This document shows, piece after piece, positions 8,709 through 51,900 of a stretch of 64,000 bases of DNA. The stretch spans positions 128,749 to 192,748 of the IMG/VR virus record IMGVR_UViG_3300010049_000010, one strand, 5' to 3'. The notes beneath the pieces were generated by a model, which did no database searches, was not told the origin of the DNA, and saw nothing but the letters and a program-made list of their open reading frames with translations. Position 1 is the first letter of the stretch. Every line of letters begins with the position of its first letter. The translations under genes and the position numbers were made by a program. The DNA comes from a virus. Its lineage: Duplodnaviria > Heunggongvirae > Uroviricota > Caudoviricetes.

Positions 8709-9869
8709 TTAGTAGTTTTTTAGTAACTCTTCTACTTTATCTGTTTTCTCCCAAGAAAAGTTTTCCTTTCCAAAATGGCCATAAGTTGCAGTTGGCAAAT
8801 ATATTGGTTTTTTAAGATCAAGATGTTTAATAATGCCGGCGGGTGTTAAATCAAATACTTTACTAATAGCATTGCTAATTTTTATTTCACCTTCACTGCT
8901 TAAATCACCAAAGGTATCAACATAAATTGATACAGGATGTGGAACGCCGATTGCGTATGATAACTGTATTTCACATTTTGAAGTCAATCCTGCAGCAACT
9001 ATATTTTTTGCGATATATCTTGCCATATATGCAGCCGAACGATCTACTTTACTTGGATCTTTTCCAGAAAATGCGCCGCCGCCATGTCTTCCCATTCCGC
9101 CGTATGTGTCAACGATTATTTTTCTTCCAGTTAAACCAGTATCTCCAGTTGGCCCGCCAACAACAAATTTTCCTGTTGGATTGATAAAATAATTATCATT
9201 AAATGGAAGCCCTGATTCTTCTAATACTGGTCTAATAACTTTAGATATTAAGAAATCTTCTATATCTCTATGTTTTACTGATTCATGATGCTGATGTGAC
9301 ATAACGACTGTATTTACTCTTTTTGGTTTATCATTTTCATATTCAATAGTTACTTGGCTTTTAGCATCAGGTTTTAACCAATTTACTTCACCAGAGTTTC
9401 TTATTGCGGAAGCTCGTTTTAATAATTTGTGTGCGATTGAAATTGCAGCTGGCATTAATTCAGACGTTTCATTGCAAGCAAATCCGAACATCATACCTTG
9501 ATCACCAGCGCCTTGTTGACCTTTAAATTGTTCGAGACCATTTCCACTTACACCTTGGTCAATGTCAGGCGACTGAGTATGAATGGCATTTAATATCGTC
9601 ATTGATTTATAATCGAGACCGTAATTAGGGTCATCGTAGCCGATATCTTTAACTACATTTTTTGCAATATCTTGAATATCAACATAAGTTTTTGTAGTGA
9701 TTTCCCCACCCACTAATATGAGTGAAGATGTCGCATAAGTTTCACAAGCGACTCGGCTATCAGCATCATCTCTTAAACATGCGTCTAAAACTGCGTCAGA
9801 TATTTGGTCACATAATTTGTCTGGATGGCCTTCGGATACTGACTCCGATGTAAATAAATAGTTTCTCAT
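8709..9869 (-). CDS. metK: S-adenosylmethionine synthetase
   Basis: [55 protein letters not shown]. Confidence 0.98.
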
Positions 9870-23026: not shown

Positions 23027-23377
23027 CTACCATTCAAGTTCTCCGCCCATTCCAATTACGGCATTTATAAGTTCGGGCTCAACTTCTGTTTGTAATTTGT
23101 CTTTGATTAAGTTCTTAACTCTTTCAAAAAATTGTTTTCTCGTTTCATCGTCTTCAATTTCAGTGAGTGATAGTCCAGCGTAAACACCACCCTCTTCAAA
23201 TTGATAAGTGAATCCCGCTTCTTCTAAAATTTGATAACCATCATCATAATCATCCTCATCTACTTCATGATTAAGTTTTGATTTAATTTCATTCCACTGA
23301 TCTTCTTCAAAGTGATAACCGACTATAACAAATGAACTTGATGATGAATTACTTACGAATCCGTTTCTAATTTTCAT
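23027..23377 (-). CDS. Hypothetical protein with MKIRNGFVSNSSSSSF N-terminus
   Basis: N-terminal 16 aa identical to those of 33597..34097. Confidence 0.75.
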   Translation of the reverse strand: MKIRNGFVSNSSSSSFVIVGYHFEEDQWNEIKSKLNHEVDEDDYDDGYQILEEAGFTYQFEEGGVYAGLSLTEIEDDETRKQFFERVKNLIKDKLQTEVEPELINAVIGMGGELEW

Positions 23378-33596: not shown

Positions 33597-34097
33597 TTAA
33601 TCGTATTTTATATCTATCTCTGAGTCTGGTGCCCAAAGAAACTTACGCAATGTTTCTTTATCGGTAAACATTTTTGCGCTTTCTTCTGAATTGTAAGGAT
33701 TAGATCCATGATTTAATTCGTATGCAATTTTATTGCTTGCGAATGCGTCATGTGTCCATTCATCATCTTCATTATACATATAATTTATTTTAATTTCTTC
33801 TACACCTAAGTCTTCTTGTAATACTTCACAAAACATATCAGTCCAATTAGTATTTCCTTTTTCAGATCCAGGACCTTCCATAATATAACACATCAATGCG
33901 GCCCAATTAAGTTTATCAATATTACTTCGATAAGTTTCATAATTCCAATCAGTTGTTCCTCCCAAAGTTTGAGGAATATCTAATCGTTTTACATTACCAA
34001 ATGCACTATGTAATTTTGGAATTTGAAGTGGGTCTTTTCCAATTATAATAAAACTGGAACTTGAACTGTTGCTTACGAAGCCATTTCTAATTTTCAT
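33597..34097 (-). CDS. Hypothetical protein with MKIRNGFVSNSSSSSF N-terminus
   Basis: Shares N-terminus with 23027..23377. Confidence 0.75.
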   Translation of the reverse strand: MKIRNGFVSNSSSSSFIIIGKDPLQIPKLHSAFGNVKRLDIPQTLGGTTDWNYETYRSNIDKLNWAALMCYIMEGPGSEKGNTNWTDMFCEVLQEDLGVEEIKINYMYNEDDEWTHDAFASNKIAYELNHGSNPYNSEESAKMFTDKETLRKFLWAPDSEIDIKYD

Positions 34098-39274: not shown

Positions 39275-40732
39275 GTGAGAAGTTTAGATCAATTTATTAA
39301 ATATGCAGATAATTATAAAGGAATAAAACAAAGAAGAGATTTCGTTTGGAATTCTTCTATAAAAGCGTCTAAACTTTATGAGCAATTTTTAGATATTATT
39401 TGTGATGAAGATTTATATAAATTATACGAAACTGTTGAATTATTAAAACAGTACGAAGATATAAAACATCTTAAAGAAGATGAGATAAATTTAAAGCGAT
39501 ATACTGATATTGCAATGCTTAAACATATTAAAGAAATGGAAGGCGGAGCAGGTGGGAATGAAGCTGAAGAAGAACAAGCTGAATTACAAAATCAGAAAAG
39601 ATTAGATGATGAAAAGGCAGCAAAAGCTGCCGCGAAACAAAAAGCTGAAGCTGAAAAAGCAGCTGCAACAGAGAGAGGAAAACCTTTAACAACTCAAGGC
39701 GCTAAAGAAATTGAACAAGGAATTTATAATGATGTGATAAATCCATTCAAAGACACTTTAGAAAAATATCTTAATCCACAGGGAAATCCCAGTGGAGAAT
39801 TTGATCCAAAAAGCAGAGAAGGAAGACAAGCAGCAGGTGCAGCTAAACAAAATAAACAGATTGCAATACAAACGTTAAAAAAATATTTACCTCAAATGTT
39901 AACAGATTATGGTATTATTGGAAATCAAGGTACTGAATTTGATCCTAATGAAGTTAAAAACTTAAAAGGACAAATAGATAATCAAACAGCTGAATTAGCA
40001 AAACAATTAGAAGAAATAAATCAATTAAAAGCTCAAATAGAACAATCAGCTCAACAAACGCAAGATCAAACAGCTCAAACAACTATGCAAGCAATATTAG
40101 ATAGGTTAACTGCTTTAGAACAAAGCACGCAACGAACACAACAATCTTCACAACAAGCAGCAGAAAATGTTGCAACTATGACTGGTTCTGGATCTTATAA
40201 TGTTGGTGGAGGAAGAGACCCCGCATTACCTGGATTAAGTGGAAATAATGGACAACAAGAATCTCCTGTAAATGATAAACAAACTTTTTCAATAATGAAT
40301 GGTTTAGTAGCTGAAGCAGTTCCACCGGGCCCAATGGATAAAGGTGAAATACAAAATAAAATAGCATATGTTATATGGTCATTATGGAAAGGAGGAAAAT
40401 TAAATCAGAATATTACAACTCCATATAGAACTATATTAGAAAAACATGGAATTGAATCTACTTTTATTCCTGCAGATGGTAATCATAATGGTACAAGTGG
40501 AAATACTGTTTGGAATATAGAACCTGTTAAAAGTATTCAAATTTTATCCGCTATTGCTGGTGAAGTTGCTGCATTAAACAAAGGAAAATTTTCTAGAGAT
40601 CCTAGAAAAGTTACAATGAATATAAGAAATTCTTTACATAAAAATTCAAGTAAATTAAGTTTAACGGAATCAATCGAATTATTTAAAGAAAGATTAGAAT
40701 TAGGTCTTATAAATTCTCGATTATTTGGTTAA
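39275..40732 (+). CDS. Coiled-coil, Gln/Ala-rich putative virion protein
   Basis: 485 aa; LYE, LKE, IKE, LTE motifs. Confidence 0.6.
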   Translation: MRSLDQFIKYADNYKGIKQRRDFVWNSSIKASKLYEQFLDIICDEDLYKLYETVELLKQYEDIKHLKEDEINLKRYTDIAMLKHIKEMEGGAGGNEAEEEQAELQNQKRLDDEKAAKAAAKQKAEAEKAAATERGKPLTTQGAKEIEQGIYNDVINPFKDTLEKYLNPQGNPSGEFDPKSREGRQAAGAAKQNKQIAIQTLKKYLPQMLTDYGIIGNQGTEFDPNEVKNLKGQIDNQTAELAKQLEEINQLKAQIEQSAQQTQDQTAQTTMQAILDRLTALEQSTQRTQQSSQQAAENVATMTGSGSYNVGGGRDPALPGLSGNNGQQESPVNDKQTFSIMNGLVAEAVPPGPMDKGEIQNKIAYVIWSLWKGGKLNQNITTPYRTILEKHGIESTFIPADGNHNGTSGNTVWNIEPVKSIQILSAIAGEVAALNKGKFSRDPRKVTMNIRNSLHKNSSKLSLTESIELFKERLELGLINSRLFG

Positions 40733-41474
40733 GTTCTTTTTCCGAATAAGTTTCTAAATTAAGATTAAGATTTCCCAGCGTGTTTTGGTCCATTAAAGTA
40801 GTTAATTTCCATCCCCATTTTGAAGACGGGAATTTATTTATAGAAATATCTAATTTCATTAATTCTGGAAATATATTTTTAACTCGAGAGTGCATATATT
40901 TTAACACATCTTCATCATGAACAGATTTCATCACAGTAGTATTTATGTGAAAATATTTTATGCAATCTGATTTTTTAGTCATATGAAGTAATTCTTTCCA
41001 AACAAGTTTTAATGATTCCATTGTGAGATTGTCAATTTCTAAGTTCTGTTTAATCATCACATCATAATATTTATAATCAAAATGATAAAAATTAATCAAT
41101 TTATTGTCTAATAAAAACTTTATTTTTTCTGGGAACATTCCAGTTGTGAATATTCCAGTTAAAAACCCGCTTCTTTGCGCGTGGTGCATCATACTATATA
41201 ATTCATTTTCGTGCTTACAAAGAATCTCCCCACCTGAAAAAATAACGTAATCAACAGTTTTAATATATTGTCGAGTCGCCTCATTCCATCGTTTTAATGC
41301 AGTTATTTTTTCATTTACTTCTGGCACAATTAAATCACCCGGCACAAAACAAAAGTCTCGCAGGCTTGTATTATAACAGTATTTGCAGCTCAAAGGGCAT
41401 CCACGGCCATATACTACGGCGCAGGCGCCCTCTGGACTATCTAATAAACTGTGCTCTAAAAATCTATAACTCAT
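40707..41474 (-). CDS. nrdG: Radical SAM protein, anaerobic RNR activase (NrdG)-like
   Basis: SLLDSP...VVYGRGCPLSCKYCYN, VIFSGGE. Confidence 0.7.
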   Translation of the reverse strand: MSYRFLEHSLLDSPEGACAVVYGRGCPLSCKYCYNTSLRDFCFVPGDLIVPEVNEKITALKRWNEATRQYIKTVDYVIFSGGEILCKHENELYSMMHHAQRSGFLTGIFTTGMFPEKIKFLLDNKLINFYHFDYKYYDVMIKQNLEIDNLTMESLKLVWKELLHMTKKSDCIKYFHINTTVMKSVHDEDVLKYMHSRVKNIFPELMKLDISINKFPSSKWGWKLTTLMDQNTLGNLNLNLETYSEKELNQIIENL

Positions 41475-42316
41475 TCGAATTTAATCTCCAATGTTTCATG
41501 TTGTTTTATTTGACGCGTAATTGATTCGATCATTTCTTGTAAATCTAAATCTGGTTGAATATTAATTGCATATTTCATTGACATTTCATTAACAAACAAA
41601 GCTTTATTATCAACGCCAGGTTCATTTTTTGCTTTTGTATTTGCTAATTTTAATATATCTTCTTTTATCGTTAAATATTTATTTACATTTCCTATGTAAG
41701 TTCCAGTTAAACTTTTTAAGTATTCACTGCTATTTTTAGTGATTAAATGTCCAATAACGTGATAATAAAAGAAGTTCATATCTTGATCTAAAGTGCTTGG
41801 ATCTACAACAGCAAGTGAAACTTTTACAAAATCACGATTAGCAAAACTTCTTACTTTTGGATAAAATCTGTTGCTTTCTTCTTCATATTCTTTTGCGATT
41901 ATTATATTTCCATTAGCAGTAAATGCGAATCCATTACTGAATAAAATATCGAACATTGTATTAAGAGAATAATATCTATTTTTTAATAATTTTTTAAGGA
42001 AAGCAGCTCCATACGATAATTCAAAACCATCATCGAGCGACATCAATCTTTTGAAAATTACATTCATTCTTTCATCTAAGTCGATATATTTTCCGTTGTA
42101 AAATATTTCTATTTTCTCATTTTTATCTTGAGAAATAGATATTTCATCATCTTCATAGGAAAAACGATTCATATATTTCATAATATTACTGACAGAATCA
42201 GTGTTCATAATGCTGTTCATTATTTTATCAAACTTTTTATGAGATTTTTGTATCTGTATTATTCCTTCAGTTGAGGGAATTAAAACTGCTTCTTCTGTCA
42301 GTATGTGCTTAATCAT
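41471..42316 (-). CDS. rIIB-like protein (divergent)
   Basis: Directly follows rIIA; SHKKFDKI, FLKKLLKN, FAFTANGNIIIAK. Confidence 0.55.
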   Translation of the reverse strand: MIKHILTEEAVLIPSTEGIIQIQKSHKKFDKIMNSIMNTDSVSNIMKYMNRFSYEDDEISISQDKNEKIEIFYNGKYIDLDERMNVIFKRLMSLDDGFELSYGAAFLKKLLKNRYYSLNTMFDILFSNGFAFTANGNIIIAKEYEEESNRFYPKVRSFANRDFVKVSLAVVDPSTLDQDMNFFYYHVIGHLITKNSSEYLKSLTGTYIGNVNKYLTIKEDILKLANTKAKNEPGVDNKALFVNEMSMKYAINIQPDLDLQEMIESITRQIKQHETLEIKFE

Positions 42317-44784
42317 TTTTCATCCAGTCCTTCAATATTAGCAATATAACTTACTATTTTTGTGATAGAAATACTGTTACTAATTCCAGATGATCCAGCA
42401 TTATCAAACGCGAAACTAATCATCGGATATAAATTATATAAGTCTTGCTTAAAATCTATTCTTTCTGAGTTCAAATTATCAATTTTCTTTGATAATGCGA
42501 AAAACTTTGGCTGTAATTCAGCATGCAAACTGTGTGAGCCATTTTCTTTGACTACATTAAATATTTTTTCATAAGCTTCTCTTATTTTAGTTCTTGCAAC
42601 TTCAGGCACTCCAGCTTCTGTTATTTTTCTTTCACATTCTTTTCCAAAAGCAGTGTTATTAAAATCAACCCAGTTACTTCCAATATGTAAATATTTTTCT
42701 GCGTTTTCTTTTGAAGTTAATAACGAGCTTCCATAAAGATTAAACTGGTTTAATAAATTATCAGATATATTATCAAAATTATTATTCAAATAACTCATCG
42801 CATAATCTGGGGCATGAACCCAATTAGAATTAAATTGGATATTATTTTTCTTAAAAAACTTGTAATCAATTAAAAAGTGATGCGTTGGAACTGGGATAAC
42901 TCCTCTTATTTTATTCAGTGAGTTTATTTTGAACTTAGACGATTCTACTCTTCCTTTTTCATCAATTCTGATTGCTGCATTTTTATTAAGTTTAGAATTA
43001 AGAGCTAATTTGCTAAATTCAGGAGTGAACCACCAACCTCTTTCATTCGGATTACCTTCAAAACATTCATAAGTCACTATTTCTTTTGCTGCAATTTTTA
43101 ATACTTGCGCTTCCAATATTTTATTTTTACCATCCATATAATTATAAACTACACAGTCATTATTTCTTTCAGTTTTTTCTCTTTTTTGTCTTGCCACAGT
43201 TTCTTTTGGAAGCTGTAATTCAGAACTTTTCTTTAATATAAATGTTGGAAATAATTTCTTAATAACAGCTCCGATTTTTTCAGAAACTATAAATAAATCA
43301 TCCTGCCTATTTGGCAATAAAGTTATTTTAGTTCTTACAGCTGCCGGCATAGTTCCATATTGTTTTCCTTTTGCAATAGTTCTTAATGAGAAAGTTTGTG
43401 TCTGTGCTGCTAATTTTTCCTCGTCTAAAATTATGCCGTATTTTATTTGTCCGTTCATAATTTTATTAAAGAATTCTCTTATTGTGGAGGAATCACTAAC
43501 ATCAGAATATGTTTTAACATTAGAGCCAATGCACATCATTTGGTGAGATTGTTTGTGCTCCCTGGCGTAGTAACAAGCATCGTCTGCTAATATGGATTTA
43601 TTCAAGATAATTTTTCCCATTGCGTAGCTGACAGTGTCTTTGTAGTATTTCCATGCTGCTGTGCCTTCTAAAAACCCGTGAGAAGTTATATGAGCGTTAT
43701 CAACCTTATTATAATTCTTTAAGAATTTCTGAGGTGTGTTTAATTTTCCAGATAATTCTGTTAACCAATTTTCATAATGAGCATAAAACAAAGTTCTTAA
43801 AGTATTTATTGTGTTTTTATTGTAACTTAAAGTTTCTCTTGAGGGCTGAAAATCAACGGCGCCCATATCAATGTGTAATACTTTCTTTAAAGTTGTGCCG
43901 GTTGTATTAGGAAAATCTAATAATTTATTAGATATTTTTTTATATTTTTCGTCTAATATCTGAGTTTCATTTACTCCGTAAAATATCTGTCCCATTATTA
44001 CGCCATATTCAGAGCCGTAACTTTTAATTATTTCCCGGTAACAATCACTCTCGGGTAAAGATTTCCCGCCAATGTAATCTGCTTTAGCAAATTCTCTTAC
44101 TTCTTTCCAGAAAGGCTTTAATAAATCTTTTTCTCTTTTTGAATAGGGCACAAAATTTTTGAACATATCATAAAACTCAGTTTCACCTCTCATAATATTT
44201 GGCATTTTATCAAAGAATAAAAAAGTTTTAATTGCTGCCCTATAAAATTCTCGTATGTTTTCTTCTTTCACGATAACTTCAACAGATGTTCCAGTTCTAT
44301 CTGTTTCTTTTTCCGAAACAAGAGTTACATTAGGAATACCATTTTCATCTTTGTAAATAATATAACTTCTCATTGAGCCTTCTTTTGAAGTTGTGAGCGT
44401 GAACTGAGAAGTATAAGCCAATGGCGTTTTTCCACCAAGGCCTAATGCTCCGATAACGTTATTATTATTTGATTTTGTTGACTTGCCGTATGATTTATAA
44501 ACTGTCATTACATCGTCGTGAGTCATTCCAATACCATTATCTTCAATTATTAGTGAAAGATTTAAGTCAGTTGGAAAATAGATATTGAAGTTTTCATTAT
44601 TATTTGCTTCAATATTAGCGTCTATCGCATTACAAGAAAGTTCTCTTATTATCGCGCGAATTGGATCTTCATAAATCTTTGCTGATAATATCTCGAACAT
44701 TTTTGCGTTAGCTGCAATTTCAAATTCTGAACTTACAGTTTCTAAATTGTTTTCTAAATTGTAATTTTTAGTATTCAATACCAT
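42313..44784 (-). CDS. rIIA: rIIA protein (N-terminal GHKL ATPase)
   Basis: KMFEILSAKIYEDPIRAIIRELSCNAIDA, EDNGIGM, YGKSTK, IGALGLGGK, FQPSRETLSY. Confidence 0.9.
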   Translation of the reverse strand: MVLNTKNYNLENNLETVSSEFEIAANAKMFEILSAKIYEDPIRAIIRELSCNAIDANIEANNNENFNIYFPTDLNLSLIIEDNGIGMTHDDVMTVYKSYGKSTKSNNNNVIGALGLGGKTPLAYTSQFTLTTSKEGSMRSYIIYKDENGIPNVTLVSEKETDRTGTSVEVIVKEENIREFYRAAIKTFLFFDKMPNIMRGETEFYDMFKNFVPYSKREKDLLKPFWKEVREFAKADYIGGKSLPESDCYREIIKSYGSEYGVIMGQIFYGVNETQILDEKYKKISNKLLDFPNTTGTTLKKVLHIDMGAVDFQPSRETLSYNKNTINTLRTLFYAHYENWLTELSGKLNTPQKFLKNYNKVDNAHITSHGFLEGTAAWKYYKDTVSYAMGKIILNKSILADDACYYAREHKQSHQMMCIGSNVKTYSDVSDSSTIREFFNKIMNGQIKYGIILDEEKLAAQTQTFSLRTIAKGKQYGTMPAAVRTKITLLPNRQDDLFIVSEKIGAVIKKLFPTFILKKSSELQLPKETVARQKREKTERNNDCVVYNYMDGKNKILEAQVLKIAAKEIVTYECFEGNPNERGWWFTPEFSKLALNSKLNKNAAIRIDEKGRVESSKFKINSLNKIRGVIPVPTHHFLIDYKFFKKNNIQFNSNWVHAPDYAMSYLNNNFDNISDNLLNQFNLYGSSLLTSKENAEKYLHIGSNWVDFNNTAFGKECERKITEAGVPEVARTKIREAYEKIFNVVKENGSHSLHAELQPKFFALSKKIDNLNSERIDFKQDLYNLYPMISFAFDNAGSSGISNSISITKIVSYIANIEGLDEK

Positions 44785-44812
44785 ATTTTACCCCTTAATA
44801 AAATATAAGATT

Positions 44813-46492
44813 TTAGGATGGATAATTTCTCCAGAAGTTAGCAGGTGTGTTTTCAACCAATTTTCCAATCGCTACCATCTGAGTTGCTGTGAAGATTTTT
44901 TCCATTGGAAGTGCAATTTCATCACAGTAAGATTTTAATATACGGAAGTCAGCATAATTTGCGAGCGAAGTTCCGAGCGCAATATCTTTTGTAAGTTTTT
45001 TCTTGTCAAGTGCTAATTCTGTTTTTTCAATTGCTGTCTTAGCTTTTTCCATTTGTGCAGTCAGTTTAATTTTCTGCTCTTCAATAAGAGCAAGTTTTTC
45101 TTTAAGTATTTTCATTCCCTTAAAGGCAACCTTAAACTTTTCTTTCTGTATTTCTAATTTAGCGATTTTCTCTTTGTGTTTCTTTTTTAATTCTTTCACT
45201 CTGGCTTTTGCCTTTGTTACTCTCTCTTCAATTTTTCCTTCAGCTTCTTTCTGGTTTTTACCAACATTTTTCTGATGATTCATTTGCTTGGCGATTTCCA
45301 GATTAGCTTCAAATATTGCTCTTAATTTTTCTGCCTCTGTATTATTAGCAGTTATTTTCTGAGCCTTAAGATTATTTACAAGAACTTCGTTGCATTTTAC
45401 TGTGCGAAGATTTTTTACTGTGATTCCGGGCATTATGCTTTTCAAATATCCATTTACATTGATATCCTCTGCGAAAATTCTCTTGCCTTTAGTAAATGTT
45501 TTCTTTTTTAATACATTCCAGATTCCTGCATCAATAGTAATTGTTCTCGTTTCTGGTACAGAGTCTTTTCCGAGAAAGTTAAAAGTTATTGTATTTCCAT
45601 TTCCCAATATCATATGCTCGCCGCGAAGTGTGCTCATTCCGTAAGTTAATGCAGATTTCTTTTCATCCTTTTCTCCGCCAACACGGATTCCAGTTTCTTG
45701 AATTAAGTAAATAACGAGCGCTTCGTCTTTTCCCTTGAGGGCATCAGTGCGAATTGCTGTTTGAATTTTTGTCCAATTTTTTAATATTTTTGCGGATGTG
45801 TCAAATTTTCCAGTAATTGCTTCTTGCCTTACAGAAACTTCTCCGTGGAAAGCAATTACTTTGTTTAATTTTTTATAGCAGCTCATTTCCGGTCTGCCAC
45901 AATGAATTTGATATTTCATTACCCACATTGCAGTTGCATCGGATACAGATTTAAGTTTTGTGGGATTGGTCGCATTTACAATATTTAGTGTAACATCAGA
46001 TTCTGTTACTGCATATTTCCAGCAAAATTTTCGGGGATCTTTGCCACGAGTTAAAATCCAGTTTGGAGCTTCGATTGCAAAATTAGCAAGTCGAACTTTT
46101 TTCCCGTCAAGGATTGCAGTGCCAAAAATCTCTTTAATTTTTTCTTTTTCTGCTTTTTCAGCAAGTTTAACTTCTTTCGGTGTTGCCTTTTTTTCCAGTT
46201 TCTCAGATTCTTGCCTGTTTTTCATTACATTAAGTATATCAAGAAAATCTGCAGGAAACTGTAATTTTTGCTGTGTTTTAGTAAGTTCAGGTTTTAAACA
46301 TTTCCACATATTGCCATTTTTAGCAAATGCTTCTGTTTCATAATCTGAGCCAATAAACCTAGCAGCTTTCCACAACATTTCCTCTGCAAGGACTGGAAGT
46401 TTTTCCCCATTAAGCACCAAACCTTTTGATTGATATTCCTCTGGAAAGGTTGGACCGTTACTGGTTAAACTATTAAATCTCTTCTGTTTCAT
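44813..46492 (-). CDS. DNA topoisomerase IB, long eukaryotic/archaeal type
   Basis: IRVGGEK, FNFLGKDS, GITVKNLRT, MNHQK, IALGTSLANY (catalytic R-K-R-H-Y); Top1-like N-terminal core and coiled-coil linker. Confidence 0.92.
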   Translation of the reverse strand: MKQKRFNSLTSNGPTFPEEYQSKGLVLNGEKLPVLAEEMLWKAARFIGSDYETEAFAKNGNMWKCLKPELTKTQQKLQFPADFLDILNVMKNRQESEKLEKKATPKEVKLAEKAEKEKIKEIFGTAILDGKKVRLANFAIEAPNWILTRGKDPRKFCWKYAVTESDVTLNIVNATNPTKLKSVSDATAMWVMKYQIHCGRPEMSCYKKLNKVIAFHGEVSVRQEAITGKFDTSAKILKNWTKIQTAIRTDALKGKDEALVIYLIQETGIRVGGEKDEKKSALTYGMSTLRGEHMILGNGNTITFNFLGKDSVPETRTITIDAGIWNVLKKKTFTKGKRIFAEDINVNGYLKSIMPGITVKNLRTVKCNEVLVNNLKAQKITANNTEAEKLRAIFEANLEIAKQMNHQKNVGKNQKEAEGKIEERVTKAKARVKELKKKHKEKIAKLEIQKEKFKVAFKGMKILKEKLALIEEQKIKLTAQMEKAKTAIEKTELALDKKKLTKDIALGTSLANYADFRILKSYCDEIALPMEKIFTATQMVAIGKLVENTPANFWRNYPS

Positions 46493-46497
46493 AATAT

Positions 46498-46526
46498 ATT
46501 ATAAGATTAACGGAATTTTCATTCAA
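46498..46526 (-). promoter_or_regulatory. Sigma70-like promoter (class I); probably leaderless topo IB mRNA
   Basis: TTGAAT-N17-TATAAT-N5-ATG, no SD. Confidence 0.8.
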
Positions 46527-46567
46527 AACATCTTTTTGTGATTAGTTATCCTTTTTTACTAATTATT

Positions 46568-48940
46568 ATGAATCCAGTAACTTTATATCGACAATGGAAA
46601 GTTCCACTATCAAAATCAAACGCCCAAACCGCCGCATCACAAGTTTCCCTTTTCGATTTATTATTTTATTATAAGCCAGGAGTTGGCGGATTACCTCCTC
46701 AACTTTGCACTAGATTTTTAGATGAGCCAAATGCAGCTTCATTTAAGCATAAAGGATTTGAATTAAAACATAACATTATAGTGTTTGATTCTAATATGTA
46801 TCAATTACCAAGAAATCCTCTATCAGAACCAGAACATCGACGATATATAAATATAAGAAGATCTCCAAGACCACCGGGAGTAACAGATGGTTGGACTTTT
46901 GAAGATTGGTCAACTACTGGATTTGATATTTGTCTTCCTAGATTTGATAAAAGAACTAAACCTTTATATTTAACAAAAGATAATATCAAAGTAATGGGCG
47001 GGCATGTAAGTGATGGAGATTTTGATACAGCAATTAAGTATTTAAAACCTAATGCGTTAGATCCATCAGATTTTTATTATAATGGTGTTGCAGGTTTAGC
47101 AAACGGAATTAAAGTTTGGGATAAAGACGCGACTATTAAACCTCTCAATTCATTTGATTTTTATACAAGTTCGGCTCATTATAAAGAAAGTGAAGAAGAA
47201 AAAAATAATTGGGATGATTATGACCCTTATAAAGTAGCAGTAGAAAATGACTGGGAATTAATGGGTGATGTAAATGATGCTGATATAGTTTTATGTGGAA
47301 GAGATTATTCTTTTGAAGATAGATTTTTATTAAAAGATTCTGGATTATTAGCTTATAATGGAATATGCTTAAATCACAAATCAGTAGAAGTTTGGAATAA
47401 CTTTCTTGCATATTATAACGCAAGTTTTAGATTAAGAAATTCAGGTGATATAGCATCTATAGTAGAAGTTGATGGTATTTTTGTTGATAAATTAAATCCA
47501 GTTTATGAATATTTATTAAAACATTGTTACGTTTGGGTAAGATGTTCTTTTTATGCTGATTATATTGATTATAGAGATTTTGATCAGCAATTAAATAAAG
47601 ACGCTTCTGTTATTCACAGTAATTTAATGTTAACAAATAAAGGTGATTGGAAAAGATATGAAAAATTATTTTCTACACCAGAAAGCAACGTTTCACCAAG
47701 AGATTTTGCTGATAAGAGTCGTCCATATATGCCGACAACCACTCCGTCTATAGATAGATTAAGAGATCAAATTGTAAATTTTTCTAATCCAACTGCAGAA
47801 ATGATTGATAAAATCAATGATATGATTGAAGATGCAAATGATCCTAATAGTAAAATTGGGTCTATTCCAGTTGAGCCATTTGAATTTCAAGATGAGGGAA
47901 AAGATTTTAATTTTACATCAAAAGCAATGGTACACCCGCCTCCAATTTGGTTTGATACTGAATCAAGAAAAACTGGAGCTGATTATCATGATTATCCAAT
48001 TGTAATGTCTAAAGAGGGTAATTTAATTATTGATGGAAGAGTATTAAGTCCTTCAATTGATGAACTTTGGGAAATGATTAAAAAATTAGTTGGTGGAAGA
48101 AAATCTGACACAGATATGTCATTAAATATGGATATAGATAACGCATATCCAAGAGGTGCAGATAATTTCCGTCCGCATCCAACAGCAGCTCCAGAAAATA
48201 GAAGCACTAATTTTGATTCGCGGCCACATTTAATGAATCATAAATTTGTTGATATTAATGGGAAAACAGTAATGGGTGACCCCACATTTATTAGTTATAA
48301 AATAGATGACACTAATCCTCATTATGAAGTTTTAGAATGGGTTAACTCTCCAACATATATCCAATATAGAATTATATCAGAATTAGCAGCATTAAACGCA
48401 GAAGTAAGCGCTGGGAATATTGACCAAGCTATATATAATATAAATCAAATGTTAAAACCAACTGAATATCTTCCTTCAATTAGTCCTTGGACATTACGAG
48501 AAATAGAAGCTCAATTAAAAGGATTAAGATGGAATCTTTGTTATTATATGACTTATCAAAAAAGGGTAGGTGTATACAATGGACCAATAGGACGTGCTAA
48601 TAGTGATAATACTAGGACTGATAATGTAAATAGATCTGCAGGTAGTTTATATCAATTACATAAAAATTATAATCCTACAAATATAGACCAACCAAACACT
48701 GTTTATGATGAAAGATCAAATAGATTTTGTGAAGAATCTGCTCCACACACGCATAATTCTAATTGTTTACTTCCACCTTCAGGATATTATGGAACTGGTT
48801 TAGGTAAAATAACTGTTGATAAAACTTCTAATAATAAAGATATAGCTCCATCATGGGCAACTTATTTAGGCGCCGATGGTGAATGGCATTCTACAAAACA
48901 GTGCTTATTGATTCCTATTAGAAAAGACGAATATTGGTAG
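46568..48940 (+). CDS. Putative virion structural protein
   Basis: ~790 aa; start moved to ATG 46568 after TTACTA-ATTATT; precedes giant genes. Confidence 0.55.
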   Translation: MNPVTLYRQWKVPLSKSNAQTAASQVSLFDLLFYYKPGVGGLPPQLCTRFLDEPNAASFKHKGFELKHNIIVFDSNMYQLPRNPLSEPEHRRYINIRRSPRPPGVTDGWTFEDWSTTGFDICLPRFDKRTKPLYLTKDNIKVMGGHVSDGDFDTAIKYLKPNALDPSDFYYNGVAGLANGIKVWDKDATIKPLNSFDFYTSSAHYKESEEEKNNWDDYDPYKVAVENDWELMGDVNDADIVLCGRDYSFEDRFLLKDSGLLAYNGICLNHKSVEVWNNFLAYYNASFRLRNSGDIASIVEVDGIFVDKLNPVYEYLLKHCYVWVRCSFYADYIDYRDFDQQLNKDASVIHSNLMLTNKGDWKRYEKLFSTPESNVSPRDFADKSRPYMPTTTPSIDRLRDQIVNFSNPTAEMIDKINDMIEDANDPNSKIGSIPVEPFEFQDEGKDFNFTSKAMVHPPPIWFDTESRKTGADYHDYPIVMSKEGNLIIDGRVLSPSIDELWEMIKKLVGGRKSDTDMSLNMDIDNAYPRGADNFRPHPTAAPENRSTNFDSRPHLMNHKFVDINGKTVMGDPTFISYKIDDTNPHYEVLEWVNSPTYIQYRIISELAALNAEVSAGNIDQAIYNINQMLKPTEYLPSISPWTLREIEAQLKGLRWNLCYYMTYQKRVGVYNGPIGRANSDNTRTDNVNRSAGSLYQLHKNYNPTNIDQPNTVYDERSNRFCEESAPHTHNSNCLLPPSGYYGTGLGKITVDKTSNNKDIAPSWATYLGADGEWHSTKQCLLIPIRKDEYW

Positions 48941-48964
48941 ATCTCGCGTAGATAACTAAATAAT

Positions 48965-51900
48965 ATGAATAATGTTGAAACTCCTATCAGTGGATTATAC
49001 AGTCCAGGAAGCATTTATATAGATGAGAAAAATGATCAATTACGATATAGAATATCTCATGATAAACCTTCTAATTGGTTAATTCCGTTATCTGTTTATA
49101 CAGCAGGTAGAAATAATTCTGCATCAGTTGCATATATAAAAAGAGGCCAACCAGTTTCTGTTGGATATTTTGATGATTTAGATGATGAAACACAAAATGA
49201 AGCAGATTCCGCGATAGTAATTACAGACCCACGAAGTTATAAAACTTGTATTGGTATAGCATTAGAAGCTGGCAATTCAAAAGATACTAATAATAGAATA
49301 TCTAAAAAAGTGCATGTATTATCTCACGGACAAATTGAATATGATTTAACTGATAATAGAGACAATTTATTTCATCCACCATTTACTGGTTCCGGGTCAT
49401 CAAGAAAATATGTTTGGAATTATGAAAATGATATTGGAAAACTTGTCTATATTACTATAGATCCTACTGCTGTAAGACCTGGAGAAATAAATGGATTGAC
49501 AACTGATATTACTAAAGCATATCATAATGGGTCATCAATTATTTGTGTCGGAAAAATCGCAGACGCGCCTAGAGAAAATGATTCGTCAGACCAGCAACAA
49601 ATAGTTATTGAAGTTCAAATATCAGGAGACGTAAGAGGTGTAGTTGACTCAACACAATTTGAAATTGTATTATCAAATAATCAAATAACGACAAATCAAT
49701 TTCCAATCTCAAGTGATAAGCTTATTTTCGTAAAAGTAAAACAATTTACTAGAACTGTAGACGGCGAAACTGTTTCTGAACCAGTGGGTTATGTCATTGA
49801 AACAGACCAAGATATTTTAGCTGATGGGGCCCAGCATTCTCCTTTTGGAGCATTCAAAGTAACTCCATCTGAGTTTGCTAATTTTAATACACTATTTGTT
49901 GGCAAAAGTATTTTATGTAATAGATTAGGAATTATAGAAGGTAACTTTAATAATAACCCAAGTGATTTTGGAAAAGAATTATTTTTAGTTGATGGTAATA
50001 CTGTAACATCAGGTGCTGCTGATACTTATGAATATAAAGTTGGTCTTGTTTTAGATCAAAGAAGAATTTTAATAGATTGCCGATATCCTAGATTATTTAC
50101 TAGGTTCGATATGATTGGTACAATGAGACCGGCTTATTCTGATATTGATGAAGTCCCAACTAGAATTATAACTGATCCTGGTTTTGTAAAAATGACTCCT
50201 GGAGTAACTCATAAAGTTAACGGAGCATGGGCTGATGATGAAGAATATCCAGCAATTGATTTTTCTACATTATTAAAAACTACAATGTATGCGGGATTTT
50301 ATGAATATTGCCCACCAGTGCCAGGTACTCCTCCAACAGCTCCTACACCTACTGACCCTCGATGGACTGATATAACAGGTAATTATACTTTTAATGAAGT
50401 TGCTCCTGATCCTATTGGCTCTTGGGCTGGAAATATATTTTTAGGTTATTTTAGATTTAAAGATTTTTATTATCAAGCAACTAATGGAAAAGTAGTTACA
50501 CAAATCAAATATACTCAAGAAGGCGCGCCGGAAACGATGTCTTATATTTGGCCAGAAGTTAGTTTTGATTATGAATGGCCTGCAAGATCAATGACTGCTG
50601 GTTCATTTGATGATATGGACACATTTAATTTAATTAGAGATTCTAATAATGTTATAAGTTCACATGAATTTGATATAACACCTATAGTTGAATTAGGATA
50701 TTATCAAAATGGTAATGAACAAAATATAGAAAATTATGATATCGTATTAAAATTAAGGGATAAAGCAACTAACAAAGATATTATAATGCCCGCTGGATTC
50801 TTTTCATTTGAAGATAATCTTTACGGTTTTCAATGGACAATATATAAGAATTTAAATAATAAATGGATATTAGGAATGTTCTGTCGTCCAAATCAAGATA
50901 TTATAGCACAAAAATGTTTAGGTCTAACGTGGCCAATTGGAAAAAGAAATACCAATCCAATTTTAATGAATATAGTTGTAAGAAGACGTCCTATTCAATA
51001 TCACAATTTAATGTTAAATCAGCTTGTTAGACAAAATCCTTGGAATGCGTTTTCTGACGGACAAAATATTATTACAAAAAATTCTATTTATTTCGGCGAT
51101 AAAGTGCCAATTCAAACTGAAGATGATAATAAAGAACAATGGCATTCAGTTGGAGAAGGTGCATCAGAATTAAGAGTTGAAAATCAAGTGCCTGTTACTA
51201 TAGATGGTGAAACAACATATTGGAAAAAAGTTTCAGAAATTTATGGTGAACATTTAATATCAGGAAGTCCAGTAACTAAAAAACAAATAGATTTATTAGA
51301 AAAAACTATAGTGCCTAAAAAAGTTGATATTCACAGCACTAATAATCCAATAACTTGGACATATGATTTCAAAAATAATGTTGCTGATTTAAGTGCCACA
51401 ATGGCGATAGATGCTAATGCCAGAAAAACTTCTGAAGACTTAACTATAGGAACAGGACCTACTGCAGAAACTAAACAATATATAAATTCTTTAGAAGATT
51501 ATACAGATGATAGATCGGCTTTAAGAACTTTATATGAAGTTCCAATTGGATTTTTTAGATATGAAAATGCGTTAAGAGATTCTATTGGTACAGCTCAAGA
51601 ACAATGGGATGAAGTCCCTGGCTCAACCAATAGATTTAGAGGACCCGCAACAAGAAGAGATATTTTTCCTAGACCAGTAAAAATTGAAAAAGATGATGAT
51701 GGTAATATAGTAAGTGAAACTTTTGACGAATCAATTAGTGGTATTAATTATGATTATTTACACCCGACAACTGGTGGTATGCCTAATGAAGAATGGAATA
51801 AATTATCAGAGGAAATAGATAAAATATTTACACCAATAATAAGAAATGATAGCACAAAAATAATTGGCGGTGGTGATAGTATGATATTTCAAAATAATAT

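Follow-up and report, generated by a model that had tools for sequence, protein, structure and literature searches.

A predicted long-type DNA topoisomerase IB on a diverse branch of phage enzymes with recurrently split genes

The gene at positions 44813–46492 (minus strand) of the window, i.e., the whole 64,000-nucleotide stretch of phage DNA analyzed here, most probably (at a probability of roughly 0.8, as judged from sequence and model) encodes an intact DNA topoisomerase IB of the long type, which belongs to a deep phage branch and likely acts as an ATP-independent swivel. It is a new variant of the long topoisomerase IB by lineage, by host domain, and by recurrent fission. In earlier work, the long form is ascribed to eukaryotes and some archaea and, as such, taken as a sign of their common ancestry, and viral and bacterial topoisomerases IB are described as short (PMC2621148, PMC2647321, and PMC8748870).

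Anatomy of the phage enzyme

The ORF runs from ATG to TAA over 559 amino acids, and its assignment is supported by Pfam, a PDB match, and a structure model. Three Top1 domains were detected, each above its Pfam cut-off: the cap or DNA-binding fragment Topoisom_I_N (amino acids 5–194, positions 45911–46480, minus strand; E 5e-23, 82 bits against a cut-off of 25), the catalytic core Topoisom_I (amino acids 221–438, 45179–45832, minus strand; E 3e-37), and the Topo_C_assoc domain (amino acids 487–538, 44879–45034, minus strand; E 3e-13, 49.8 bits against 25.1). A sequence-only reading had called a long-type enzyme at this place; every motif that it quoted is present in the ORF, and the two HMMs that it had named, Topoisom_I_N and Topoisom_I, both matched above cut-off. 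An AlphaFold2 model (pLDDT 92.9, from a 42-row alignment) includes two long linker helices (amino acids 414–456 and 462–500; 44993–45253, minus strand) that form a lysine-rich coiled coil, with 30 Lys and Arg and 16 Asp and Glu across the linker region (amino acids 410–503). In Foldseek comparisons, the model aligned to human Top1 (1k4t/1a36) with a TM of 0.83, to human Top1–DNA complexes with 0.80–0.83, across the yeast N-terminal fragment 1ois with 0.75, and to bacterial and pox enzymes with 0.25–0.32. Among the 14 PDB sequences matched by the protein, the archaeal TOP1 6Z01 ranked first (E 5e-38) and human Top1 next (E 4e-33), with E of just 4e-6 for the short Deinococcus enzyme.

Human residue numbers are given on the assumption that the 591-amino acid human PDB chain starts at residue 175. 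This numbering agrees with K532 and Y723 in a PDB title and with Tyr426 in PMC8748870. When aligned to the PDB sequence, R270, K309, R363, and H406 (in the catalytic core domain, along with D310) and Y513 (codon 44954–44956, in Topo_C_assoc) pair with human R488, K532, R590, H632, and Y723, which bears out the five catalytic residues (R, K, R, H, Y) previously read from the sequence; the same pentad is invariant in all 31 rows of the phage clade described below. The equivalents of human D533, R364, and N722 are also retained (D310, R149, and N512). Two positions of the camptothecin pocket, both in Topoisom_I_N, are substituted, with T148 at human G363 and I146 at human F361. The first had been noted from the sequence as possibly relevant to camptothecin sensitivity: the substitution itself is confirmed, but no more than 10 of the 31 clade rows carry Gly there, and the camptothecin resistance of CsTOP1 is attributed to linker and lip dynamics (PMC8748870), so that the remark serves as a lead only. 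The hinge tyrosine (human Y426, CsTOP1 Y207), found in 13/13 archaeal and 18/19 eukaryote-side rows, is replaced by Val212 here and occurs in 0/31 phage-clade rows; clamp closing may therefore differ in the phage clade. The missing hinge tyrosine marks a variant, this residue not being a catalytic one that defines the family.

Compared with human Topo70 (1K4T, 1A36, and 1RRJ), the phage protein thus displays the same domain order and catalytic pentad, at 23–24% identity, but it lacks the N-terminal extension, differs at G363 (Thr), F361 (Ile), and Tyr426 (Val), and is a phage-encoded enzyme from a separate clade. It resembles archaeal TOP1 (Nitrososphaerota; CsTOP1, 6Z01) in its similar length and lack of N-terminal extension (PMC2621148 and PMC8748870), although its linker is longer than that of Caldiarchaeum CsTOP1, the conserved hinge tyrosine is lacking, and it is not nested in Nitrososphaerota.

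Topoisomerase IB catalytic cores have been reported in phages (PMC7824862 and PMC9123017). The published jumbo-phage enzymes (Lu11, PaBG, Motura, PhiXhv-12, and RHph_N46) share the Topoisom_I core and span 541–668 amino acids; however, in five phage proteins tested (Motura, Lu11, RHph_N46, PhiXhv-12, and BS162P1), neither Topoisom_I_N nor Topo_C_assoc gave a match with the threshold relaxed to E 1, and the Lu11 enzyme is 21% identical to the phage protein, with the Lu11 type grouping with the short type. The earlier statement that bacterial and poxviral topoisomerases IB are short does not extend to phages (541–668 amino acids); since published phage enzymes reach such lengths, the novelty lies in the Top1-type N- and C-domains rather than in length. 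No description of a long-type topoisomerase IB in phages was found in the literature covered, from which subscription journals and supplement S1.3 of PMC7824862 were excluded, and PMC13037316 gave no match on this subject. A tblastn search of 50,697 annotated phage records with the phage protein as query returned nothing at E 1e-3, and an archaeal query at E 0.1 matched 19 of these records, all in the catalytic core only. Separately, a 485-kb uncultured phage encodes a short-type core fused to a preceding N-terminal domain, in which a DFDGT motif resembles that of phosphatases (L034:1874-3400).

Genomic setting and expression

The source record (G000; 261,131 bases, classified as virus and estimated 79% complete) was annotated by a Pfam scan of most of its 260 ORFs of ≥90 amino acids (a 225-amino acid ORF was left out, and a 2384-amino acid ORF was processed as partial pieces) and by a PHROGs scan of 63 ORFs, 10 of which were repeated at a looser cut. 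Tail genes were identified with PHROGs, including a baseplate wedge (E 2e-14) and a tail tube (E 1e-15), while the tail sheath and terminase gave weak matches only, the Pfam family Terminase_6N was found in 0/4 cases, and a lead for a Gp23-like capsid (score 0.96) belongs to a family present on 46% of members. Replication genes comprise a split family-A polymerase, DnaB, a ligase, and NrdD. This is a tailed phage, as the baseplate wedge, tail tube, and rIIA on the same record attest, in agreement with the bacteriophage context given by the sequence-only reading. The T4-like frame of that reading fared less well, given the family-A DNA polymerase, and the likeness to T4 is only remote. The rIIA-like gene (42313–44784, minus strand; PHROGs phrog_612, E 5e-93) starts 28 nt downstream of the topoisomerase gene and is a neighbor conserved in close relatives; no minus-strand terminator was found, and the two genes are likely co-transcribed.

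Elsewhere, this domain architecture belongs to cells or giant viruses, which raises the question of an assembly chimera, or of a piece of eukaryotic or archaeal DNA within a phage contig. In this regard, the GC3 of the gene (0.27) is higher than the genome median (0.20), yet within the 5–95% range (0.12–0.29). However, the same divergent upstream gene and the rIIA gene downstream flank the topoisomerase gene in 5/5 related viral loci (L015–L019, at 58–64% identity, with L015 and L016 near-duplicates), and this shared gene order in independent assemblies rules out a chimera; homologues are also found on many further phage contigs, and a phage promoter motif precedes the gene. Contig integrity, which had been flagged for checking, was likewise upheld by a single 37.8-kb contig that covers window positions 40000–50000 at flat depth in runs X1 and X2, although these may be the source of the record and perhaps one data set; next to none of the stretch was present in runs X4 and X5. 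A chimeric origin is thus vanishingly improbable.

The runs containing the phage DNA are termite gut metagenomes, and the phage encodes a PotD-like spermidine/putrescine-binding lipoprotein (G000:C1:75999-77057) for which, among the 120 matches listed, all 10 with an organism name are from Treponema. Taken together, these two observations suggest that Treponema is the likely host. Several other genes on this phage are of interest in their own right. A cluster at G000:C1:211000-224000 combines a C5 methylase, an FkbM methyltransferase, and two TAGT-family glycosyltransferase-like genes with radical SAM, epimerase, thymidylate kinase, and synthase-like genes, and is a candidate DNA hypermodification pathway. 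An NAD salvage set (NAD synthase, NAPRTase, a cytidylyltransferase-like gene, an NMN transporter, and a NadR-like AAA protein) is encoded at G000:C1:235585-241338 and 117695-121129, a chaperonin (Cpn60) at G000:C1:133318-134967, and a SAM synthetase (MetK) at window positions 8709–9869, and a family of small genes beginning MKIRNGFVSNSS occurs at window positions 23027–23377 and 33597–34097 and in about six more places on the record.

Upstream of the topoisomerase gene, a promoter-like site (TTGAAT-N17-TATAAT, 46498–46526, minus strand) lies 5 nt before the ATG, in line with the sigma70-like promoter proposed from the sequence, and no Shine-Dalgarno sequence precedes this ATG. A generic sigma70-like scan showed no excess of sites (8 vs. 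7.1 in shuffles), whereas a stricter motif, defined after the site at the topoisomerase gene was known, was detected 8 times in the genome vs. a mean of 0.1 over 100 shuffles. All 8 strict copies are on one strand and within 32 nt of an ATG, half of them (4/8) at 5 nt, and a similar motif is found ahead of most of 8 aligned homologous genes. The transcript is hence likely leaderless, and early expression, suggested by the promoter class alone, is likely. In RNA run X3, two short contigs of a close relative overlap the gene, and 12 of their 14 in-gene differences are synonymous, which suggests purifying selection; most of the region is without cover in this run and the two contigs may be DNA, so that they are at best a weak sign of expression.

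Position among topoisomerases IB

Next, we evaluated the origin of the gene. Homologues were drawn from a protein search (694 matches) and a representative search (1830 matches, of which 150 are listed), and trees were built through quick or FastTree searches with SH-aLRT rather than bootstrap support. A FastTree phylogeny of 179 rows recovered an archaeal clade (100) and a eukaryote-side clade (99; eukaryote labels were assigned on the basis of N-terminal extensions and a single EukProt row), and the branch that unites the two (99) left out 82 other rows. Phage-like contigs contributed 10 rows to a 70-row quick tree from IQ-TREE, and all of these fell within one clade of 31 rows (SH-aLRT 99), the other 21 being without assigned phage context, and the archaeal (99) and eukaryote/giant-virus (99) clades stood apart from it. 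When short enzymes were included as outgroup in a core tree (42 long vs. 9 other rows, 218 columns, 3 rows having been dropped for lack of an anchor motif), the long forms made up one clade (SH-aLRT 100), i.e., the phage protein groups with these and not with the short bacterial or pox forms, and archaea and eukaryotes came together (95). AU tests on a 42-row set rejected a nested position within Nitrososphaerota (p 0.0003) and one within Asgard/Bathyarchaeia (p 0.012), but not a single clade of phage and giant-virus rows (p 0.097); on the eukaryote side, the tests covered this giant-virus union, and the phage rows are outside the eukaryote-side clade in all best trees. Without six unassigned deep rows, support for phage monophyly went down to 38 and neither alternative root was rejected (p 0.46 and 0.47), from which we conclude that the branch is separate and old, with alternative branching orders compatible with the data. 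Overall, these trees place the gene on a phage branch that is deep and diverse and stands apart from the archaeal and eukaryote/giant-virus clades, and they do not support a recent borrowing. A cross-domain acquisition, one of two origins suggested from the sequence alone, is not supported by these trees if meant as a recent event, and the other, a relic lineage, is favored by them. The branch would be old within this jumbo-phage group rather than copied from archaea in recent times.

An ancient transfer from a eukaryote, a giant virus, or unsampled archaea, followed by fast divergence such that long branches mimic independence, is a possible but rather unlikely origin. Giant viruses do carry long topoisomerases IB, their union with the phage rows was not rejected, the rooted tests do not separate the three arrangements, and termite and rumen guts harbor protists and archaea alongside spirochaetes. 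The giant-virus enzymes (Dasosvirus, Marseillevirus LCMAC202/101, and GVMAG contigs) are virus-encoded and structurally similar (TM 0.76–0.80), but are only ~27% identical to the phage protein and are placed within the eukaryote side in the best trees. In addition, nesting in sampled archaea was rejected, and the phage clade is internally at least as diverse as the archaeal clade. Prokaryote genomes were scanned in 30 of 64 parts; the best 80 of 584 matching loci were 27–34% identical to the phage protein, none above 34%, and included no phage-clade member, so that the scan points to no host; the low identities further argue against such a transfer in favor of the separate phage branch.

Some members or relatives of this clade come from unusual contigs. 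Three contigs of 18–21% GC (L144, L147, and L151) encode a long topoisomerase IB of the phage clade amid a gene content unlike these phages, possibly because the gene moved into a eukaryote or a different group of viruses. Two phage-clade genes are on contigs of 940 kb (P0034) and 579 kb (P0124), which may represent megaphages or an integration in a cell genome. Finally, two long homologues of 919 (P0116) and 942 (P0199) amino acids matched in three stretches, and the first bears two extra Pfam domains, PF14528 and PF14890, presumably LAGLIDADG and intein families, and is likely intein-bearing.

Split relatives, role, and implications

The gene of the window is whole, including a loop (amino acids 297–300; 45593–45604, minus strand) predicted between two strands at which the genes of relatives are cut. 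Many homologues are N-halves of 300–317 amino acids that end just ahead of the FLGKDS strand, and C-halves of ~263–280 amino acids begin at this strand; 7 of 13 viral loci are of this half-gene type. The halves are adjacent in at least four loci (L025, L123, L125, and L128, with 19 of 35 loci examined), and in one complete relative (G001; halves at L021:7995-8897 and L029:1501-2292) they lie ~51 kb apart across the genome ends, each preceded by the promoter motif. The halves in L161 are separated by a GIY-YIG gene of opposite orientation, with a stop codon and a promoter motif of its own before the C-half, while the gene in the syntenic locus L160 is whole; in L020 and L124, a NUMOD3-bearing endonuclease-like gene directly follows the N-half. 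Split and whole forms interleave, the N tree requiring a minimum of 8 changes and the C tree of 6, and the two trees agree for paired halves. A single origin of the split without re-fusion was rejected (p 1.6e-10, LG+G4), and the change counts would fit fission on several occasions, the spread of a split allele by endonucleases, and re-fusion alike. A split intein or intron was discarded, as no extra domains were found at the N-half ends or C-half starts in the loci examined; Rfam gave 0 matches in 5 loci, and an intron at L161 is contradicted by the stop codon and promoter motif before the C-half.

In these relatives, free-standing homing endonucleases are the likely agents that divided the gene at a single surface loop, and the resulting halves likely reassemble as a heterodimer. 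Two separately initiated genes with an endonuclease between them (as in L161) recall the nrdA/mobE genes of Aeh1 and 39/mobA/60 of T4 (PMC2988022), and Leishmania topoisomerase IB (2B9S) also consists of two subunits; unlike all of these, the gene in this window is whole. The large Leishmania chain (432 amino acids) matches amino acids 3–408 of the query, so that this enzyme is cut after the catalytic His, whereas the phage cut interrupts the catalytic core itself, after the first Arg and ahead of the Lys. Genes in pieces seem common in this phage group: the family-A DNA polymerase of the source record is in two ORFs of 701 and 302 amino acids with a small ORF between (G000:C1:81731-85289), the DNA polymerase is also in separate pieces in L123 and L132, and the homologue of a helicase (G000:226595-228448) is in two pieces ~7 kb apart on opposite strands (L123:6111-6431 and L123:13639-15183).

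As to the role of the enzyme, no type IIA or IA topoisomerase was found in the source record (79% complete) or in the complete genomes G006 and G001, and a complete relative of 329 kb shows no topoisomerase besides IB, suggesting that IB is likely the swivel of the phage. Across 5 records, type IIA subunits were detected in one (G003, i.e., 1 of 3 complete records) and type IA in none, and type IIA was found in 0/4 further incomplete records. Type II genes are also located just upstream of IB on the L128 contig (this contig, L118, L123, L132, and L138 were searched in part for C-halves and type II genes). Since G003 and L128 carry both, IB does not always replace type II and is not simply a substitute for it. 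The enzyme is likely made early, from a leaderless promoter of sigma70 type that belongs to this gene. By analogy with the known chemistry of Top1 and given the parts conserved here, it would clamp duplex DNA, nick one strand through a 3'-phosphotyrosine at Tyr513, let the free end rotate under linker control, and religate without ATP, and it may thereby relieve supercoils of either sign while a ~330-kb genome is transcribed and replicated.

Alternatively, an active enzyme could serve a narrower task, e.g., on R-loops, recombination intermediates, embedded ribonucleotides, or likely modified DNA, in keeping with the known side activities of Top1, with the retention of IB beside type II in G003 and L128, and with the glycosyltransferases, TAGT-family proteins, and methylases encoded by the genome. 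We consider this improbable, as IB is the only recognizable topoisomerase in 2 of 3 complete relatives and the full clamp and linker are conserved, as processive relaxation would need.

With the long enzyme previously ascribed to eukaryotes and some archaea, a third diverse branch in bacterial viruses alters the sampling behind the common-ancestor argument and makes a viral origin testable; Forterre and Gadelle speculated on such an origin for other topoisomerase IB groups. More speculatively, and on balance unlikely, the phage branch may be sister to all archaeal and eukaryotic Top1, with the enzyme passed from large bacterial viruses to their ancestor, and the split relatives may be a natural two-chain Top1. 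If so, large bacterial viruses would be the setting in which the long clamp-and-linker enzyme arose or diversified, and repeated splitting within its active site would have yielded a natural two-chain Top1 with halves encoded up to 51 kb apart. This clade also provides compact natural Top1 variants, whole or two-chain, that are bacterially expressed, lack the hinge tyrosine, and vary at camptothecin-pocket positions, and which may be useful for studies of clamp dynamics and drug sensitivity.
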